Assembly (NCBI GenBank): GCA_964642835.1
Contig: CAZXQA010000002.1
Coordinates: forward strand, 11,875-75,874
DNA length: 64,000 nt
Reading direction: 5' to 3'
From: an uncultured Candidatus Saccharibacteria bacterium
Lineage (GTDB): Bacteria > Patescibacteriota > Minisyncoccia > Phycocordibacterales > Zambryskibacteraceae
Part shown: one piece after another, positions 1 to 40,561 of the stretch
Position numbering within the stretch: the first letter of the stretch is position 1
Layout: each line of letters starts with the position of its first letter
Translations under genes and position numbers: made by a program
Notes under the pieces: model-generated
What the model saw: only the letters and a program-made list of their open reading frames with translations
Databases searched by the model: none
Told to the model about the DNA's origin: nothing

Positions 1-88
1 TTCGTGGCATATGCGTACGTGTTAACAAAGGATAATCCTTTGCATTGTAGGGGAAAGGAGGTAAAGAAAAATTAAAGATTTAAGCGCA

Positions 89-3000: not shown

Positions 3001-3167
3001 ATTGTTTAACGGCCAATTTACTCGTTATTTTTACTGTCCTTTAATTCTACCATCTTTTGTCCTTTATTGCAAGTCCCGTCCATTATGTGCCTCAGAGACA
3101 GATCTTGCAAGAGCCTCTGTGGACAAAAAGACCCTGAGAGGCGTGTGGTAGAATATGAGAGCTCTAT

Positions 3168-33097: not shown

Positions 33098-33130
33098 AAG
33101 TAGAAAATTAATCTAGATGGCTTCTCAAAT

Positions 33131-33168
33131 GTATACCTAGAAGGGGTTAAAGAGAAGCCGGATTTTAT
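33131..33168 (-). repeat. Cassette repeat R0, truncated terminal copy (T-module 3' part only)
   Basis: gtatacctagaaggggttaaagagaagccggattttat matches the distal part of R1-R6. It marks the distal end of the array. Confidence 0.7.
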
Positions 33169-33177
33169 AAAACTTGC

Positions 33178-33699
33178 CTACTTAGCTAAATCCAACACGT
33201 TTGCCAAAACGCTCTCAATATCTTGATTCGCATCCACCACCAATGCACCCTGCTCCACCAAGCTTCTTTCTATCTTCTCTTTTCTTTCAAGAATATAGTC
33301 CTGAACTTCTGGAGATTTACCGAACCCATTATCGGTTCGAGCAAGTAATCTGCTGCGGACATTCTCTGGGCTCGCAACTAACAAAATTACTTTGCTAAAC
33401 AATGAGACTATTTCTTCTAAGTTATTCGGAGCTCCACAATAGAAAACTAATTCATTCTCCTGATTAGCAATAATCTCTTTGAGCTTATCCTTTTTATACA
33501 GCCAATACATCTTCTGGATTTTCTCCAGATCATTGTTGTTGTCATAGGGTGTAGGAAGTCCTGTCTTTTTATCCACCATGACACACAAATCTTCCACTCC
33601 ATCCATATCACGAGTTTCGTAACCTAAAGCTTTGAGTCTGCGGCTTACTTCGGACTTACCTGAGCCGCTAACTCCTGCAATAAGAATTGATTGCTTCAT
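33178..33699 (-). CDS. Cassette gene 1: P-loop NTPase / nucleoside-nucleotide kinase-like
   Basis: GVSGSGKS Walker A near the N-terminus; small kinase fold. Confidence 0.7.
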   Translation of the reverse strand: MKQSILIAGVSGSGKSEVSRRLKALGYETRDMDGVEDLCVMVDKKTGLPTPYDNNNDLEKIQKMYWLYKKDKLKEIIANQENELVFYCGAPNNLEEIVSLFSKVILLVASPENVRSRLLARTDNGFGKSPEVQDYILERKEKIERSLVEQGALVVDANQDIESVLANVLDLAK

Positions 33700-33806
33700 G
33701 CAGAAACTATACCAGAATAAGAATCGTTGGGGCCAGAGTAGGAAAATTATTCTGAGGGTGTTTTCAGATAGAGTATACCTGGAAGGGGTTAAAGAGAAGC
33801 TGGATT
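33700..33806 (-). repeat. Cassette repeat R1 (P-module + T-module)
   Basis: ataccagaataag...ttggggccagagtaggaaaattattctg...gtatacctggaaggggttaaagagaagctggatttta; the upstream gene's TAA stop is embedded in the repeat. Confidence 0.85.
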
Positions 33807-34361
33807 TTATCTCATCATTTCAACTAATCCCTCTAAACAAGGAGGTAACTGTGTCCATCCACTAGACCCGTTAAGATGCCTGCCATTTGGCACAAGAACC
33901 AACTCACCCCCCAATTCCCTTGAAAGGGTTCCGGCGTTAGACACTGGAACATTTGGATCATTGTCTCCGTGGATAATCAGAAACTTACCGCATTTTGTCT
34001 TAGCTTTTTGATAATCAAAAGGAGTTTCAAGGAACGTATCAATCTTCCTATTGTTATTCTTCTCACTGGGACCGGACACAAGCACAACCCCAGCGATATT
34101 CCTTGATTCTTCGGACTCCAAATAACGCAGAATTGCTGGGACACCCAAGCTGTGTCCTACGAGATAGATCTCATCTTCCGTATTCATATCTGCCACTCTT
34201 CTGATTTCATTTACCCAATCATTGCAAATAGGTTGAGATGGGTTGGGCATTGGTAAGGCACAAGCATAGACATCGTGCTTCTCAAGCTCTCCCATCAACC
34301 AAGGTCTCCATCCACCATTTGGGCTTCCTTCAAATCCGTGAATTATAAAAACTTTTTTCAT
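33807..34361 (-). CDS. Cassette gene 2: YdeN/RBBP9-like serine alpha/beta hydrolase
   Basis: GHSLG nucleophile elbow and IHGDNDPNVP, in an alpha/beta hydrolase of about 185 aa. Confidence 0.7.
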   Translation of the reverse strand: MKKVFIIHGFEGSPNGGWRPWLMGELEKHDVYACALPMPNPSQPICNDWVNEIRRVADMNTEDEIYLVGHSLGVPAILRYLESEESRNIAGVVLVSGPSEKNNNRKIDTFLETPFDYQKAKTKCGKFLIIHGDNDPNVPVSNAGTLSRELGGELVLVPNGRHLNGSSGWTQLPPCLEGLVEMMR

Positions 34362-34454
34362 TTCAATACTTTAATAATACCTTTAATTGCTTCGAGTTTA
34401 TTGTCTGGATTCTTAAACCGCCAAAGATACTCTTCCAAATGAGCTGCGACACTC

Positions 34455-34613
34455 GGCTTATCCTTATATGGTAACGACTATACCAGAATAAGCCACTCAC
34501 CTACCCCTTCAAGAACCTTATTCTGAACTGGGGCCAGAACAGGAAAATTATTCTGGAGGTGTTTTCGGATAGGGTTTATTTGGAGAGTCTGAGGGAAAAG
34601 CTCGATTTTATAG
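34455..34613 (-). repeat. Cassette repeat R2
   Basis: Same P and T modules. The P-module has an extra inverted copy (cagaataag...cttattctg). An 80-nt stretch with a start-less 38-codon ORF lies between the P-module and the gene 2 ATG. Confidence 0.85.
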
Positions 34614-35255
34614 CTAAAGCAGCTCCTTAAGTTCAATAAGATTATTCACTTTCTTCCACGCAACCTTTTCCAACTCAACCGCCTCAAACTCCGTTCTTAC
34701 AGCAACACCATTGCTGGTGAGACTAAACAGACCAATATCGTTAGAGCTGTCCCCCACTGGCACACATTCATTTATATTGAGCCCGTGTTTTTCTCTAAAC
34801 TGATTGAATAATTCAATCTTCTTCTCCTTATCACCAGTTACGGTTATAACGTCAGTCAAATTATCTTTTTCATCCCAGACCAATGTCGATATTGCATACC
34901 AATCTGGTATACCAAGCTCTTCTCCTACAAGTTGAGCGTAAAGATCGAAGGAGCCGGTAATCATACAAAGTTTATATCCTTTTTCTTTTAGGTAAGAGAT
35001 TATTTCCTTTGCATCCTCCCTGATGGGAATCTCTTTAAGAATCTTTGTTATATCTTTTTTATTCGCCTTGCCTTCCTTAGACCAGTTTTCAAGACAAAGT
35101 TTATTAGATTCTTGAAGAGTCAACTCTCCCCTTTTCCATCTACCATAAATTTCATCATGGACTTCTATGGATCCGCCTAATCCCAAAGTAAACCTATTCC
35201 AAGAAATATCCCGAGTAAGAGTCCCGTCTATATCAAAAACTACAGCTTTAAACAT
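34614..35255 (-). CDS. Cassette gene 3: HAD-superfamily hydrolase (phosphoserine-phosphatase-like)
   Basis: N-terminal DIDGTL motif I and other HAD motifs (GDSSNDIG). Confidence 0.8.
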   Translation of the reverse strand: MFKAVVFDIDGTLTRDISWNRFTLGLGGSIEVHDEIYGRWKRGELTLQESNKLCLENWSKEGKANKKDITKILKEIPIREDAKEIISYLKEKGYKLCMITGSFDLYAQLVGEELGIPDWYAISTLVWDEKDNLTDVITVTGDKEKKIELFNQFREKHGLNINECVPVGDSSNDIGLFSLTSNGVAVRTEFEAVELEKVAWKKVNNLIELKELL

Positions 35256-35510
35256 ATTAAAACTATACCAGAATAAGAATCGTTGGGGCGACTATCGGGA
35301 TTCGGTCACGGATAATTTCTTGCTAGAAATTTCCGCTACCCCCCGCTCGGCCCGTCGGCCTCCGCACTTCGAATCCCGTAGACGTGAATAGAAAAAGCCG
35401 CCACACGGGCGGGCCTTTTCTATTCATGGGCCAGAGTAGGAAAACTATTCTGGATGTCTTCTCAGATAGAGTATACCTTGAGGGTGTCAAAGAGAAGCTG
35501 GATTTTATTG
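35256..35510 (-). repeat. Cassette repeat R3 with a 142-nt insert (35289..35430)
   Basis: The insert begins with a tRNA-His 3'-end-like cgactatcggg. It shares a 55-nt GC-rich segment with the tRNA-Val scar. It carries a bidirectional terminator hairpin at 35386..35425. Confidence 0.85.
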
Positions 35511-36389
35511 CTAACTTTGCAGCTTAGTTTGTTGCCAAGTGATATGAGGCAAAGCAGCTGCCAACATAATCAAACTGCCGCCGACAGCAATTTGAATAGT
35601 AAGGGCTTCTTTGAAGATAAGGATGCCGAAGATAACCGCAAATACCACTTCAAGCAATGACAACAAACCTCCAACACTCGCTTCGATGTATTTATAACCT
35701 TCTATAGCAAGCCAGAATCCAAGTAGACTCACTACTGCATAAATAACCAGATACAGCCAAGTAATATTCAATACTGGCCAATGTTGCATCTCTCCTAAAG
35801 CAACTGACGCCACAGCATTTGTAATGGCGATTATGATCCAACTGAGCCATGTAATATATAAGGGAGAATAAGACCCGGTTAGTTTCTTTGAAGAAGACAA
35901 TTCAAGTCCACTCGCCAATCCATTAAGAAGAGCCATGGAAGCTGCAAGAAGCGTAAACGCCGTCAAAGAGAACGAGAAGGTGATATAAAGCCCTAAGCAG
36001 GCAAGAAGAAAAGCGAATAGCTTTATTCTTGTCACCCGCTCTCCGAGAAATATAAAGCCAAAGGAATACATCATGATAATCATGCCGACAAAGAACAAGA
36101 GAGTGGCGGTACCAATGTCCATATGATTAAACGCATAGTAGATAGGGGCCTGAGTAAGTGAAGTAGAGACAAGGAACACCGACATCCATTTCCAATCCTC
36201 TCTCTTTATTGAAACAATTTGTTTCTTGTATAAAACAATTGGCAAAAGAAGAACTGCAATTAAAAGAGTTCTCGTCCAACCTTGATAGAAAACACCAAAA
36301 CTATCCCCCATTAGTCGAGACCAGACTCCATAACTTCCAAACATAAGAGTGGAAACAAGAAGAAAACCTATTCCCTTTGAAACTTTCAT
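35511..36389 (-). CDS. Cassette gene 4: EamA/DMT-family transporter
   Basis: Ten TM helices with duplicated EamA-type halves. Confidence 0.75.
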   Translation of the reverse strand: MKVSKGIGFLLVSTLMFGSYGVWSRLMGDSFGVFYQGWTRTLLIAVLLLPIVLYKKQIVSIKREDWKWMSVFLVSTSLTQAPIYYAFNHMDIGTATLLFFVGMIIMMYSFGFIFLGERVTRIKLFAFLLACLGLYITFSFSLTAFTLLAASMALLNGLASGLELSSSKKLTGSYSPLYITWLSWIIIAITNAVASVALGEMQHWPVLNITWLYLVIYAVVSLLGFWLAIEGYKYIEASVGGLLSLLEVVFAVIFGILIFKEALTIQIAVGGSLIMLAAALPHITWQQTKLQS

Positions 36390-36700
36390 ATTAAAACTAT
36401 ACCAGAATAAGCATCCTTCCCTACCCCTTCGAAAACCTTATTCTGAATTGGGGCGACTAGAGAGACGCTACGCTATCGAACTCCTCGGAAACCCACGGTT
36501 TTCCGAATCCTTCCTCCACGGGGAACTCCCGTTCCCCGACCCCCTCCCCGTTCGATTCTCTCCAGGGCCGGAGTGAAAATAAAAAGACCCACGCGAGGCG
36601 GATCTTTTTATTTTCATGGGCCAGAGTAGGAAAATTATTCTGGAGGTGTTTTCGGATAGAGTGTACCTAGAAGGGGTTAAAGAAAAGCTGGATTTTATCT
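36390..36700 (-). repeat. Cassette repeat R4 with a 167-nt insert (36454..36620)
   Basis: The insert begins cgactagagag... This is a degenerate copy of the tRNA-His variable loop, T-arm and acceptor on the same strand as tRNA-His. It also has an AAAATAAAAAGA...TCTTTTTATTTT terminator hairpin at 36575..36615. Confidence 0.85.
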
Positions 36701-37231
36701 CTAACTTTCAGCTTTCTTCACCATCTCCATCTCGGTAAAGATAGCCCCACTTTTCATTCTAAACCGCTCGTCTTGGAACCTCCTGCCCGTATCTGTAAAT
36801 CCAATATTCTTATAGAAGTTAATGGCCCCTTGATTGTAATCAACAACTTCCACATATGTATCTTTTGTATGGTCAGTGAATTCTATCGCTTTTGACCAGA
36901 GCAGTTTACCAACGCCCTTACCTTGAAAATCAGGGAGGACATAGATTGCCTGAAGCTGGTTTCTATCTTCTTTCTTAATTACACGACACACCCCAATTAC
37001 TTCACCGCTATTTTTAGCCACCAATAAAATCTCATCCTCCTTTGACTCTAGAATTTGTTTACGTTGCTTTTCCACACCCCCTTCTTCCCTCTTCTTATTA
37101 ATCCTCTCTTGAATATCCTCAAGATAAATGCCCTTTTCTTCGTTTGGGTAAGTAGCGAGCCAAGTTATATCAAAAACATTCCGAATTCCTTCAGCATCTT
37201 CCGGCTTTGGTTTTTCAATAACAAAATCCAT
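36701..37231 (-). CDS. Cassette gene 5: GNAT-family N-acetyltransferase
   Basis: Acetyl-CoA binding motif VLPDFQGKGVGKLL and the GNAT fold. Confidence 0.85.
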   Translation of the reverse strand: MDFVIEKPKPEDAEGIRNVFDITWLATYPNEEKGIYLEDIQERINKKREEGGVEKQRKQILESKEDEILLVAKNSGEVIGVCRVIKKEDRNQLQAIYVLPDFQGKGVGKLLWSKAIEFTDHTKDTYVEVVDYNQGAINFYKNIGFTDTGRRFQDERFRMKSGAIFTEMEMVKKAES

Positions 37232-37388
37232 TACTCAAACTATATCAGAATAAGCATCCTTCTTTACCCCTTCGAGAACCTTATTCTGAATTGGGGCCAG
37301 AGTAGGAAAATTATTCTGGAAGTATTCTCAGATAGAGTATACCTGGAGGGGGTTAAAGAAAAGCTGGATTTTATTGCTAACTTCCCAA
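37232..37388 (-). repeat. Cassette repeat R5
   Basis: Same organisation as R4 but without the insert. Confidence 0.85.
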
Positions 37389-37949
37389 TCACTTATCTTG
37401 CCCGGTCCTAAATTTAAGATTTGGTGGGGTAACCTTACTTTGACCACCACCATATTGACTTTGAATCTTTTGAACTACCGGGTCTTTTAACTCCGCAAAT
37501 ACCATCATCGCAATAGGGTCCTTGAATTTAAGTTTGACTCTAAAGTTGCCTACATTTTTTATTTCAAGCACAACAACGTGAGGCATTTCAAATGTCCCAT
37601 CTGCAATAGAAGCAGTGATGTGAGTCGTTATGCCTAAACGAGCAACAGTGCTTCTACCATCTAAAATTGCCAAGATATTTGGCGGAGTTTGTATGGCTTC
37701 ATAAGTTGCTCCAAGAATAAACTGATTTGGTTCAAGATAAAATTCTTCTTTAGTAAGGTCAATTTCCTTATACTTGAGCTCTTGTGCCCCTCCAATCTCA
37801 ACTGTTTGATTTGGTTCAGGAACAAGAATTTCTTTTGCCAAATGAATGCGAAGTCCGACTGGCCTGATATTTTTCTTATCAAATTCTGGCTTGATAATTA
37901 TCTGTCCTTCGTCTATGAGTTTCTCAATTGTTTGGTGTGATAAAAACAT
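37389..37949 (-). CDS. Cassette gene 6: dCTP deaminase / dUTPase-superfamily protein
   Basis: Similarity to Dcd-like proteins (IKPEFDKKNIRPVGLRIHL...ILGATYEAIQTPPNILAILDGRSTVARLGI). Confidence 0.7.
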   Translation of the reverse strand: MFLSHQTIEKLIDEGQIIIKPEFDKKNIRPVGLRIHLAKEILVPEPNQTVEIGGAQELKYKEIDLTKEEFYLEPNQFILGATYEAIQTPPNILAILDGRSTVARLGITTHITASIADGTFEMPHVVVLEIKNVGNFRVKLKFKDPIAMMVFAELKDPVVQKIQSQYGGGQSKVTPPNLKFRTGQDK

Positions 37950-38095
37950 ACGTTAAGTATAAGTCAGAATAAGAACCTATTCCTACTCCTTCAGATAAAT
38001 TATTCGTTGGGCCAGAGTAGGAAAATTATTCTGGAGGTGTTTAGTGATAGGGTTTATTTGGAGAGCGTGGCGGAAAAACTCGATTTTATAGGTAA
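37950..38095 (-). repeat. Cassette repeat R6
   Basis: Same P and T modules. Confidence 0.85.
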
Positions 38096-38716
38096 CTACC
38101 TAGGGGTAAGTCGGTAAGTTGAAACTTGAACCAGAAGTACCAAGCAAAGCCATCCTATAGCTAATGGGGAGACAAGCCACCAAACGATCGAGGTTACCAT
38201 AGTGGCATACAAGTGGATATGCTTCATGTTTTTTCTCATTCCCAAAATGACCGGAATAGTTCTCATTCTCTCCTCCTTGTCTTTTTCCACATCACGCATG
38301 TCACCGGTTAAATTTCTGGCGAACAATACCGCCCCGACGAGATAAGGAATGTATGAGGCATACCCTGTAATTGCCCCGACAATCAGAAGGTTCTGGAGCC
38401 CTCTGCAGAATGGACTTAGCCACCCTAAATTCTTGGTTTTCTTTGTATACAAGTAACTAACAAAGATATATAAGATACCTTCTAGTCTTTTAAATAAAAG
38501 TAGGCCAAAAATAGCTAAGATGTAAGAAAAACTTACAGGCACTCTCTTTCTATAGGTGTGAGCGTGTCTATTTTCTAAATGAGCCAGGAAAGCAACGTGC
38601 AACAATAATGCTCCCCAAAACTGATGAGTTATTGCACCGACAGCAATAAGCAGAAGTACTAAATCTGCCAACGAATATAGGCGTAGCTGTCCCAAGTAAT
38701 TCAAAAACGTCTTCAT
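38096..38716 (-). CDS. Cassette gene 7: polytopic membrane protein with a UbiA-like Asp-rich motif (GDMRDVEKD)
   Basis: About six TM helices and a single DxxDxxxD motif. Function uncertain; possibly a truncated prenyltransferase. Confidence 0.45.
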   Translation of the reverse strand: MKTFLNYLGQLRLYSLADLVLLLIAVGAITHQFWGALLLHVAFLAHLENRHAHTYRKRVPVSFSYILAIFGLLLFKRLEGILYIFVSYLYTKKTKNLGWLSPFCRGLQNLLIVGAITGYASYIPYLVGAVLFARNLTGDMRDVEKDKEERMRTIPVILGMRKNMKHIHLYATMVTSIVWWLVSPLAIGWLCLVLLVQVSTYRLTPR

Positions 38717-38750
38717 ATAAAAAGCATACCAGTCAGAATAAGAAACACTA
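38717..38750 (-). repeat. Cassette repeat R7 (P-module only) joining gene 7 to tRNA-His
   Basis: cagtcagaataagaaacacta immediately 3' of tRNA-His, in the same position the P-module takes next to the tRNA-His remnants in R3/R4. Confidence 0.7.
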
Positions 38751-38823
38751 GGGCGACTAGAGAGAATCGAACTCTCGAGACCAGCTCCACAAGCTGGAGT
38801 TTTACCACTAAACTATAGTCGCC
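38751..38823 (-). tRNA. tRNA-His (GTG) with an encoded G-1
   Basis: GGCGACUA...UAGUCGCCC gives an 8-bp acceptor stem including G-1:C73. Anticodon loop UUGUGGA. T-loop GUUCGAUUC. Confidence 0.88.
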
Positions 38824-40327: not shown

Positions 40328-40392
40328 ACAGTGCCCATTGGGGCCCGAAGCCCGTGCAAAAACAATACAACATATGCTAGTATCTCGCTATT

Positions 40393-40468
40393 GCGGGATT
40401 AGCTCAGTTGGTAGAGCAACTCTTTTACACAGAGAAGGTCACAGGTTCGAGTCCTGTATCCCGCACCC
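40393..40468 (+). tRNA. tRNA-Val (TAC)
   Basis: GCGGGAU acceptor stem, anticodon loop UUUACAC, T-loop GGUUCGAGUCC. Confidence 0.85.
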
Positions 40469-40561
40469 GATGGACGAGAAGCGCGCAGGCCGACGGGCCG
40501 AGCGGGGGTCGCGAAAATTTCAGTAAGAAATTATTCGTGACCGAGTCCTGTATCCCGCACC
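40469..40561 (+). repeat. att-like scar downstream of tRNA-Val. A 55-nt segment related to the R3 insert is followed by a 22-nt direct duplicate of the tRNA-Val 3' end
   Basis: ...aggccgacgggccgagcgggggtcgcgaaaatttcagtaagaaattattcgtgaccGAGTCCTGTATCCCGCACC. The capitals repeat 40447..40468. Confidence 0.7.

Follow-up and report, generated by a model that had tools for sequence, protein, structure and literature searches.

A putative folded tRNA-trailer element at two junctions of a tRNA-His-anchored cassette array in a Patescibacteria genome

Directly behind its tRNA-His(GTG) gene, a Patescibacteria (Candidate Phyla Radiation, CPR) genome carries a low-GC island of seven one-gene cassettes, and two of the junctions in this array contain additional DNA ending in a piece that resembles the 3' end of the tRNA. 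The island is located in a stretch of 64,000 nucleotides (nt) of contig CAZXQA010000002.1 (assembly GCA_964642835.1), which was analysed as a whole and is referred to here as the window. Comparison with related loci (given numbers with the prefix L) indicates that the two inserts, R3 and R4, are copies of a conserved, folded element of ~100-130 nt, here named X, which in this Patescibacteria lineage appears normally to lie immediately 3' of a tRNA gene. The interpretation favoured here, to which we give about an even chance of being correct, takes X as a tRNA-trailer module that includes an attachment-site identity block, and has the array growing by units that join it at the tRNA end. R3 and R4 are therefore viewed as marking older boundaries within an array that varies among strains.

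The cassettes are separated by a repeat which, read on the - strand, consists of a D-module (...ATAAAATCCAGCTT...CCAGAATAATTTTCCTACTCTGGCCC), a junction and a P-module (CAA...CTTATTCTGGTATAGTTTTAAT ATG), and the P-module that follows the 3' end of tRNA-His is the same as that of the cassette repeats. An initial annotation, made from the letters of the window, had described two inserts at the cassette junction. Alignment of the eight inter-cassette spacers on the - strand bears this out: the inserts (142 nt in R3 and 167 nt in R4) are placed exactly at GCCC|C, the extra DNA of both falls precisely between ...CTCTGGCCC and CAA..., and every feature described was recovered in its place or at most 3 nt away. 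The inserts had further been proposed to end in mutated copies of the 3' part of tRNA-His. R4, which ends in ...CGAGGAGTTCGAT(AGCGTAGCG)TCTCTCTAGTCGCCC, clearly does so, as its local alignment to tRNA-His scores 36 compared to 14.4 +/- 2.2 for shuffled sequences (z = 10). The alignment proposed as a check also gave tRNA-His as the best match among the eight tRNAs of the window (the seven others having z <= 1.3), and the 15-mer TCTCTCTAGTCGCCC has two exact occurrences in the window, one in tRNA-His and one in R4. The same claim does not stand for R3 on its own: this insert ends in GACCGAATCCCGATAGTCGCCC, its identity to the resident tRNA-His is limited to the 9-mer TAGTCGCCC, and its alignment taken by itself falls short of significance (z = 1.8). 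The R3 end is still regarded as meaningful, because it is located directly before a P-module and because of the family comparison below. Confirmation of the observation is thus strong in the case of R4 and, without the family comparison, weak in that of R3.

In both inserts the tRNA-like piece has the orientation of tRNA-His, occupies the far end of the inserted block and is directly followed by a P-module, as is the intact tRNA-His, all in agreement with the first description. The long hairpins are likewise real and fold into stems of 17-18 pairs. Their designation as bidirectional terminators fits the R3 hairpin, which is scored as terminator-like on both strands, but the R4 hairpin, although of the same architecture, was not flagged by a simple scan; homologous hairpins in L015, L018 and L021 have no clear T-run after the stem. 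ARAGORN identifies eight tRNAs in the window, none within 35286-36617, and Rfam at E <= 10 returned nothing over the X core or the tRNA-like arms of either insert, the sole overlapping match being Spy779816 (21.9 bits, E = 5) at 36579-36652 over the R4 hairpin. Features missed at first were an inverted copy of the T-loop and T-stem, two conserved hairpins, an element after tRNA-Val and the ATG of a micro-open reading frame (micro-ORF).

Read along the tRNA strand, X usually begins with the long hairpin, which is followed by an inverted copy of the T-loop and the 3' strand of the T-stem, a first core hairpin (hp1), a purine-rich linker, a long second hairpin (hp2) with a bulged A, the tetranucleotide TGAC or TGGC and finally a direct repeat of tRNA positions C56 to C74/75. 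The inverted tRNA copy is present in every member and in some copies includes the acceptor too. The boundary of X lies in the T-loop, the tRNA having GGTT|C... where X has GACC|C... or GGCC|C.... A fixed position in the T-loop, of the kind expected for integrase crossover sites, had been suggested for such boundaries, and in the R3-type family it is found: identity starts at C56, with T54-T55 changed to CC, in seven of eight aligned distinct copies across five tRNA species, the exception being the second copy in L014 (GTCGG|AAACACC). The identity block of the R4 type is broken between tRNA positions 59 and 60 by a conserved 9-mer.

The core of R3 is composed of hp1 GGCCGACGGGCC (35349-35360), the linker GAGCGGGGGGTAG and hp2 CGGAAATTTCT..AGAAATTATCCG (35309-35335), the latter with the bulged A and an invariant G.U pair. 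It is 88% identical (BLAST against the window and the relative loci) to the core of X_Val, a cassette-free copy directly after tRNA-Val(TAC) at 40392-40468, whose end is an exact 20-nt copy of the 3' end of that tRNA (CGAGTCCTGTATCCCGCACC); X_Val also adjoins the ruvX stop codon. The two arms of R3 pair mutually but their T-stem differs (CGGG/CCCG), and the direct arm is closer to a tRNA-His of the L008 type. A derivation of R3 from the resident tRNA-His, as first assumed, is not upheld, its T-arm belonging to another tRNA-His allele. X_R3 probably arrived by horizontal transfer from another lineage together with its cargo, because its arms carry the tRNA-His T-arm of another lineage.

R4 contains the same parts in another form, and its two relatives, L008 10657-10825 and L009 2963-3129, are 86-87% identical. 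Its inverted arm corresponds to the reversed T-loop, T-stem 3' strand and acceptor of tRNA-His (15/16 over the T-arm). The core hairpins are GGGGAAC-GGGA-GTTCCCC (36520-36537) and CGGAAA-ACCGTGGG-TTTCCG (36486-36505, with GTG in the loop), and the direct arm corresponds to tRNA-His positions ~47-59 and 60-74, split by 9 nt that are kept in the relatives (AGCGAAGCG). In L008 the R4-type hairpin is the immediate 3' neighbour of tRNA-His and would end transcription of the tRNA there. The first R4-type hairpin is exactly inverted between the window (GGGGAACGGGAGTTCCCC, 36520-36537) and L009 (GGGGAACTCCCGTTCCCC, 3042-3061), a hairpin-flip mutation.

Relatives were reached via the ribosomal protein L19 and the kinase proteins, and a covariance model (R1) was built on six X copies. 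This model identifies R3-type copies after tRNA-Val in the window, L004 and L008, after tRNA-Leu(GAG) in L015/L016 and L018, after tRNA-His in L020 and L021, after tRNA-Ser in L020 and, as a tandem pair, after tRNA-Asp in L014, a relative further removed. The arms of the L014 tandem (515-775) fit the T-arm of tRNA-Asp, with decayed acceptor parts. A weak match to the model (33 bits) was also obtained at L015 4316-4405 (-), between the L19 stop codon and tRNA-Leu(GAG), with no upstream tRNA on that strand. The R4 type, known from the three copies in the window, L008 and L009, is not recovered by the R3-type model (best score 4 bits, E = 0.31); it has the X architecture and the short motifs GAGGGGGTCG and CGGAAA...TTCCG in common with the R3 type and is here treated as a putative divergent subfamily of X.

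A match between the arms and the neighbouring tRNA is found in both types. Among 13 tRNAs, the best match of the direct arm is its own upstream tRNA in ten of the 11 copies. The arm is exact over 20 nt for Val and Ser, and for His it matches in 18/19 positions in L020 and exactly over the 18 nt left before the contig end in L021. In addition, the arms of X_R4 are equal to the resident tRNA-His, and tRNA-His and both R4-type arms co-vary (GAGAG/CTCTC in the window vs GAGGG/CCCTC in L008/L009), a co-change seen in three separate segments. The fold predicted by RNAalifold from six sequences has double changes in 11 of its 27 pairs. When pairs were counted over nine copies, in an alignment fitted to the model and including a helix (P1) with both arms tRNA-derived, 97.5% of cells were paired compared to 73% after shuffling (0/500 shuffles reached the observed value), and double changes occurred in 23 of the 27 pairs; slid controls gave 36-49%. 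X_Val is identical in 92/93 positions between the window and L008, with flanks of 88% and 74% and an L19 gene of 86% identity. The conservation of the fold together with the identity of X_Val argues that X is under selection. No Rfam 15 family matches X_R3, X_R4 or X_Val, the tRNAs alone giving matches, and three scans of viral contigs with the X cores and the D-module found nothing.

Occupied and unoccupied sites, examined from tRNA-His to X or the host gene, differ among L008, L021, the window, L009 and L004. In L008 the order is tRNA-His ...CCCTCTAGTCGCCC|ATGAAAATAAAAAG-hairpin-X-...CCCTCTAGTCACCC|cargo, an R4-type unit thus standing directly after the intact tRNA-His, and a truncated X end (AGCGAAGCGTCCCCCTAGTCGCCC) is found before the kinase cassette. 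L020 has tRNA-His followed by hairpin and X and then a P-like module, while the soil contig L021 has three genes and a D-module with the micro-ORF Y between tRNA-His and the hairpin and X, this X ending in an exact copy of the tRNA-His end of its own genome. In L009 an R4-type unit is located between a UbiA cassette and a glyoxalase-like cassette, neither of which adjoins R4 in the window. L004, of the same species and with L19 and tRNA-His identical to those of the window, has a different first cassette, and common cassettes (UbiA, kinase) occupy different ranks in different arrays. Several assemblies of the organism of the window stop right after L19 or the tRNAs. The hairpin with X is therefore the native neighbour either of the tRNA or of the mobile unit. 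Successive integration at tRNA-His, as first proposed, is borne out to the extent that relatives display before and after states, but the inserts are not simply mutated leftovers, and the interpretation of the inserts as integration scars is only partly supported.

A scan of public collections with D-module and D/insert junction patterns gave one true relative (L001, the same as L009). Two further candidates were discarded as chance matches: L002, a Lachnospiraceae coding region, and L003, a SusC-like gene of a TARA Bacteroidetes. More distant homologues of the kinase cassette (L010-L013) are without D- and P-modules. The closest of these, L010 10001-12235 from a Moranbacteria metagenome-assembled genome (MAG), has the order kinase, tRNA-Ala(CGC), EamA, as also in L011 and L012, which represents another pairing of kinase and EamA cargo genes with a tRNA. 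At L015 4540-5330, between tRNA-Leu(GAG) with its hairpin and X and tRNA-His, a gene of 174 amino acids (aa) with an HNH-like CHNCHHLVHH motif stops 3 nt before tRNA-His and resembles a cassette-style insertion behind the tRNA-Leu-matching X.

Each D-module encodes a conserved peptide, Y (MGQSRKIILEVFSDRVYLEGVKEKLDFI...; ..GQSRKIILEVFSDRVYLEGVKEKLDFI..), of ~33-45 aa antisense to the cassette gene; the body of Y is the D-module itself. Across 11 distinct copies, differences at codon positions 1, 2 and 3 number 189, 128 and 497, and synonymous changes outnumber non-synonymous ones (370 vs 221), the other two frames of the same strand giving 56/563 and 26/578. The antisense frame that shares third codon positions is also high (309/285), but has stop codons in some copies. 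Public homologues comprise ~10 ORFs of 39-60 aa and one 100-aa protein with the motif at its C-terminus, and six of them have an MG... start. Y has no Pfam match and its PHROG match is non-significant (E = 0.1). AlphaFold2 predicts a single continuous helix over residues 3-30, with a mean predicted local distance difference test (pLDDT) score of 84.5. On this pattern of substitutions and homologues Y is predicted to be a translated, protein-coding micro-ORF. An ATG is present only where the D-module adjoins an insert (36616-36618 and 35426-35428); the first bases of the insert supply it, CATG straddling the junction, and insert-free junctions have TGG or TTG instead. Two further identities were considered for Y and dropped: the C-terminus of a tyrosine recombinase, suggested by a weak LGHS...Y.H likeness, has neither Pfam support nor a long homologue, and half of a ribbon-helix-helix fold does not agree with one continuous helix. 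The coordinates of the inserts and associated features are collected in Table 1.

Table 1. Features of the cassette island, the inserts and the X element, in window coordinates.
Feature	Position	Strand	Evidence
Intact tRNA-His(GTG)	38751..38822	-	ARAGORN; Rfam tRNA 66.6 bits; sequence
Low-GC cassette island, seven one-gene cassettes	33098..38750	-	Composition, repeats, Pfam, synteny with L008, L009, L018, L020
R4 insert: hairpin + R4-type X, gene-less cassette-like unit with GCCC on both sides	36451..36617	-	Spacer alignment
R4 long hairpin, A-run before and T-run after (GAAAATAAAAAGATCCGCC..GGGTCTTTTTATTTTC)	36575..36615	.	Folding
R4 inverted arm GTTCGATTCTCTCCAGGGCC	36550..36569	+	z = 5.9
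R4 core: two hairpins and purine-rich linker	36486..36537	-	Folding; kept in L008, L009
R4 direct arm AGGAGTTCGAT + AGCGTAGCG + TCTCTCTAGTCGCCC	36451..36485	-	Alignment to tRNA-His
R3 insert: hairpin + R3-type X	35286..35427	-	Spacer alignment; covariance model R1, 101.6 bits on 35287-35380
R3 long hairpin, terminator-like on both strands	35386..35425	.	Folding, terminator scan
R3 inverted arm CTTCGAATCCCGTAGACG, pairs with the direct arm as helix P1	35367..35384	+	Folding, RNAalifold
R3 core: hp1, linker, hp2	35309..35360	-	RNAalifold, pair counts
R3 direct arm TGAC + CGAATCCCGATAGTCGCCC	35286..35308	-	Alignment, tRNA comparison
X_Val, directly after tRNA-Val(TAC), cassette-free	40469..40561	+	BLAST, covariance model
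Predicted micro-ORF Y (MGQSRKIILEVFSDRVYLEGVKEKLDFISNF...), antisense to G5	36616..36738	+	Substitution pattern, homologues, AlphaFold2
Predicted micro-ORF Y copy next to R3 (MGQSRKTILDVFSDRVYLEGVKEKLDFIANFAA)	35426..35527	+	Substitution pattern
Other Y-encoding D-modules	33728-33862, 34529-34627, 37292-37408, 38007-38114	+	
Gene for a RAYT-like Y1/HUH transposase of 240 aa, 5' end only (the window begins inside it)	1..28	-	L023 6139-6861

According to the favoured explanation, an attachment site would have its identity block in the direct tRNA copy of X. A mobile unit, ordered as promoter module, cargo gene, antisense micro-ORF Y, hairpin and X core, would recombine with the 3' end of the tRNA and leave the tRNA intact, with the result that the cargo comes to lie between the tRNA and the displaced hairpin, X and tRNA-end copy. 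New DNA would enter at the 3' end of the tRNA (after C74/75) or after the copy of that end in X, and repeated events would push older units inward. D|P junctions without X would represent units that have lost hairpin and X by a precise GCCC...GCCC deletion, which would remove the ATG of Y too. On that reading every cassette originally left a tRNA copy, and R3 and R4 are the two junctions still showing it. The enzyme would act in trans and not be encoded in the island. With the anatomy and family of X, the match of its arms to tRNAs, its conserved fold and the differences in site occupancy between genomes observed as above, the direction of growth, recombination at X and a trans-acting enzyme are what we infer.

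A candidate for such an enzyme in trans is a RAYT-like HUH protein. Its gene, at the edge of the window and complete in L023, encodes a protein with a Pfam Y1_Tnp match (1.8e-9) and the motifs HFHLLV and YIHVNP; its score against the NCBIfam model REP_Tyr_transpos is 43 bits, below the cut-off of 80. In the region of this gene (window 1-42; L023 6139-6875) a perfect palindrome, CAAAGGATTATCCTTTG, is located just upstream of it (window 26-42) and once inside it, with a near-copy close to the 3' end of the gene, and is found nowhere else in the window; it was thus not retained as a dispersed repetitive extragenic palindrome (REP), being found at the HUH gene only. Enzymes of the RAYT/Y1-HUH type act on single-stranded hairpins. 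Such an action would fit the folded X and insertion next to a fixed tetranucleotide. An island absent from the window is present in L008 (1-7900), ~2-9 kb upstream of L19 and next to tRNA-Ser, with genes for a large serine recombinase (Resolvase, Recombinase and Zn_ribbon domains), two DNA methylases and a DnaA_C/sigma-like protein.

A number of findings weigh against units having been added by recombination at X. The initial annotation expected a partial tRNA copy to remain after each event, yet an X-like tRNA piece is present at just two of the seven cassette junctions, five being without any tRNA-like block, and the D-module end at junctions lacking X resembles tRNA only over the last 4-5 nt. 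Nor was an integrase recovered, as none of the seven cassette genes and 37 other window ORFs (>=170 aa) has a Phage_integrase, resolvase or DDE match, in a search that covered the window alone, where several ORFs are without Pfam match. The R3 and R4 types are placed in one family on the basis of their common architecture and a few short motifs. The cargo-free X copies (Val; Leu in L018) show good conservation, which one would not expect of an empty scar. Double-stranded attachment sites need no covarying hairpins, and the fold rather points to RNA or single-stranded DNA. The invariant G.U pair speaks for folding of the tRNA-sense strand, as for RNA, and the covariation in P1 could arise simply from both arms copying the same tRNA. 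The main alternative, which we consider possible, if rather improbable, is that X encodes a small structured RNA or represents a tRNA 3'-trailer RNA, and that its position inside the array is incidental. Its 3' end would imitate a tRNA for cutting, trimming or CCA-tailing, or pair with the tRNA or pre-tRNA, and the cassettes would have been inserted before the trailer. The covariation-supported fold agrees with this, as do the G.U pair, which is a C.A mismatch on the other strand, and X_Val, which is as conserved as its tRNA and follows it with no intervening hairpin, making co-transcription possible; in L020 a TATAAT box is located ~7 nt before the start of X. A precedent exists in the tyrT operon of E. 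coli, whose downstream repeats include a copy of the 3' end of the tRNA and are the source of rtT RNA. An RNA is more difficult to reconcile with the strong hairpin that separates tRNA from X in the His and Leu contexts, with the lack of a convincing promoter at most copies and of a terminator after X on that strand, and with the lack of any matching Rfam family. Nor is it obvious why helix P1 in an RNA should need tRNA-derived sequence, yet the identity reaches 20/20, and the foreign T-arm of X_R3 fits a transferred DNA site better than a host-tuned RNA.

Closer to the initial annotation is the view that the inserts are functionless, mutated partial copies of tRNA-His left by integrase crossovers, accompanied by ordinary terminators. 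The similarity of R4 to tRNA-His, the orientation of R4 and its place before the P-module all conform to it, and partial tRNAs have a precedent in tRNA-linked islands (10.1101/2020.12.28.424599). About 80-100 nt of each insert are, however, not tRNA-derived and are still conserved across genomes and tRNA species with compensatory changes, every member has an inverted tRNA copy, X is kept at cargo-free sites and the T-arm of R3 does not stem from the resident tRNA. Decayed scars appear contradicted by these comparisons, and we regard them as the least probable origin of the inserts. Hardly more probable is that X functions as a programmable guide, in which hp1 and hp2 form a scaffold and the flanking segments pair with both strands of the 3' end of the tRNA gene. 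It would do so as RNA, in the manner of bridge or omega RNAs, or as single-stranded DNA, in the manner of CTX-phage attP or integron attC, and direct an enzyme in trans, such as the RAYT-like HUH protein, to place cassettes at tRNA ends. A scaffold with a 3' target-matching segment is indeed what X presents, the inverted arm is complementary to the other strand, and the difference between GGTT (tRNA) and GACC (X) could separate self from target. Units are inserted on the 3' side of a fixed tetranucleotide, outside which no target sequence is duplicated, and a Y1/HUH gene is present in the same contig. This gene is, on the other hand, 33 kb away, with a weak match and a palindrome that is local only; no effector gene stands next to any X copy, and the two arms, being complementary to each other, may simply form a helix.

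The window has a GC content of ~53%, which falls to ~40% over 33.1-38.75 kb. The low-GC island begins exactly at the 3' end of tRNA-His, ...GTTCGATTCTCTCTAGTCGCCC, which is the anchor of the array, the P-module of the first cassette starting right after C74, and it stops at the host DM13 gene, beyond which MscL and an ABC transporter are encoded. According to Pfam the cassette genes, all on the - strand, are G7 (UbiA-like), G6 (dCTP deaminase), G5 (GNAT), G4 (EamA), G3 (HAD), G2 (serine hydrolase) and G1 (AAA_18 kinase), arranged as [G7 G6 G5][hairpin + X_R4][G4][hairpin + X_R3][G3 G2 G1]. Each unit, whether cargo or X, starts after (G/A)CCC and finishes in (G/A)CCC, the A/G of these borders tracking the local tRNA-His in L021, and the junctions take the forms GCCC|CAA, GCCC|ATG, GCCC|AAC and GCCC|TAG. 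The end of the D-module was also considered as a degenerate 3' half of tRNA-His, which is not claimed here, the identity being ~50% beyond the last 4-5 nt. Elsewhere in the window, dnaA and dnaN are located at 59-62 kb. Homologues of L19 are labelled as Parcubacteria-group, and one related MAG as Saccharibacteria.

The sequence TGGTATAGT, an extended -10-like box, precedes each cassette gene and ends ~7 nt upstream of the ATG (examples on the - strand are 36397-36411, 35263-35277 and 33707-33721), with no Shine-Dalgarno spacing between box and ATG. A simple -35/-10 scan did not pick up these boxes of the P-modules. The arrangement suggests that each cassette may have its own promoter and a leaderless mRNA. 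Some P-modules (36390-36450, 37232-37296 and 34470-34534, -) are long and contain an inverted partial copy of the D-module and Y (TTCTCGAAGGGGTAAAGAAGG vs CTTTTCTTTAACCCCCTCC), so that the sequence where D meets long P forms an imperfect palindrome, its two arms of ~35 nt flanking the crossover point; short P-modules have no such copy. Between P-module and ATG, the spacer upstream of G2 (34362-34470) exceeds the others by ~110 nt.

Of the systems compared, tRNA-targeted islands with tandem accretion come closest to the locus in their way of working, but an integrase, a defining feature of such elements, was not found in the island or the window. In the tycheposon islands of Prochlorococcus, incoming elements push older ones inward and leave partial tRNAs (10.1101/2020.12.28.424599). 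The present locus has in common with these the insertion at the 3' part of a tRNA that remains intact, the partial tRNA copy at the far boundary, the strain-variable content and non-autonomous units which would rely on an enzyme supplied in trans. It differs in having no tyrosine recombinase found in the island or window, in its single-gene units with a promoter-like module, in its conserved antisense micro-ORF and in the embedding of the partial tRNA copy in a conserved folded element which also has an inverted copy and is kept at cargo-free sites too. Tandem growth of tRNA-targeted integrative elements is also known as accretion of integrative and conjugative elements (ICE) and cis-mobilizable elements (CIME). 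Integrons, and the clusters of attC sites without integrase known as CALINs, resemble the array in their tandem one-gene cassettes of one orientation with a conserved repeat of ~150 nt in between, in the rapid turnover among close relatives and in a candidate recombination site conserved more in structure than in sequence. Unlike in integrons, no IntI was found, the array is flanked by tRNA-His and the DM13 gene and thus anchored at a tRNA instead of attI, the junction is GCCC|CAA and not G|TTRRRY, no R''/L''-L'/R' box arrangement is seen, and extended -10 promoters appear to be part of the cassettes themselves.

The attP(+) site of CTX phage and attC of integrons are folded single-stranded attachment sites. 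As in these, X contains inverted target-like copies, ~70-90 nt apart, which could pair and imitate a double-stranded target, as well as conserved bulged or wobble positions; unlike in these, the apparent crossover is 3' of the duplex. REPIN/RAYT systems and miniature elements of the IS200/IS605 group are similarly short, hairpin-rich and gene-less, with a RAYT-like gene in the genome and a fixed adjacent short sequence, but the ends of X are tRNA-specific and not constant, and its copies are few and tied to tRNA genes. The rtT repeats of E. coli tyrT share the location downstream of a tRNA gene and the copy of its 3' end; X, by contrast, has no Rfam match and a different fold, and is tied to mobile cassettes and to many tRNA species. 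A search of the literature on integrons, cassette arrays and tRNA-linked islands in Patescibacteria found nothing describing this system, a report on group I introns in Patescibacteria tRNA genes (PMC13011429) being unrelated, and X and Y are undescribed in the libraries and literature searched.

The genomes of Patescibacteria are tiny, and little is understood of the ways in which these bacteria acquire and exchange genes. The locus described here is a strain-variable stack of single genes at the 3' end of a tRNA, and its cassettes differ even between organisms with identical ribosomal protein L19. If X is an attachment site, promoter, cargo, micro-ORF, hairpin and X would together constitute a compact mobile unit in need of an enzyme from elsewhere, and would provide a searchable signature for such islands and for the enzyme across the phylum. 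If X is an RNA, it would represent a new tRNA-linked RNA family. A bolder proposal, which we think unlikely, is that X and Y form the backbone of a hitherto undescribed, integrase-free cassette-capture system of Patescibacteria, in which X would be folded single-stranded DNA or RNA with two arms rewritten to match a chosen tRNA gene, and would direct a trans enzyme, possibly the RAYT-like HUH protein, in inserting and stacking one-gene cassettes at the 3' ends of tRNAs; if true, the X and Y system would be a tRNA-anchored functional analogue of the integron, with different chemistry.

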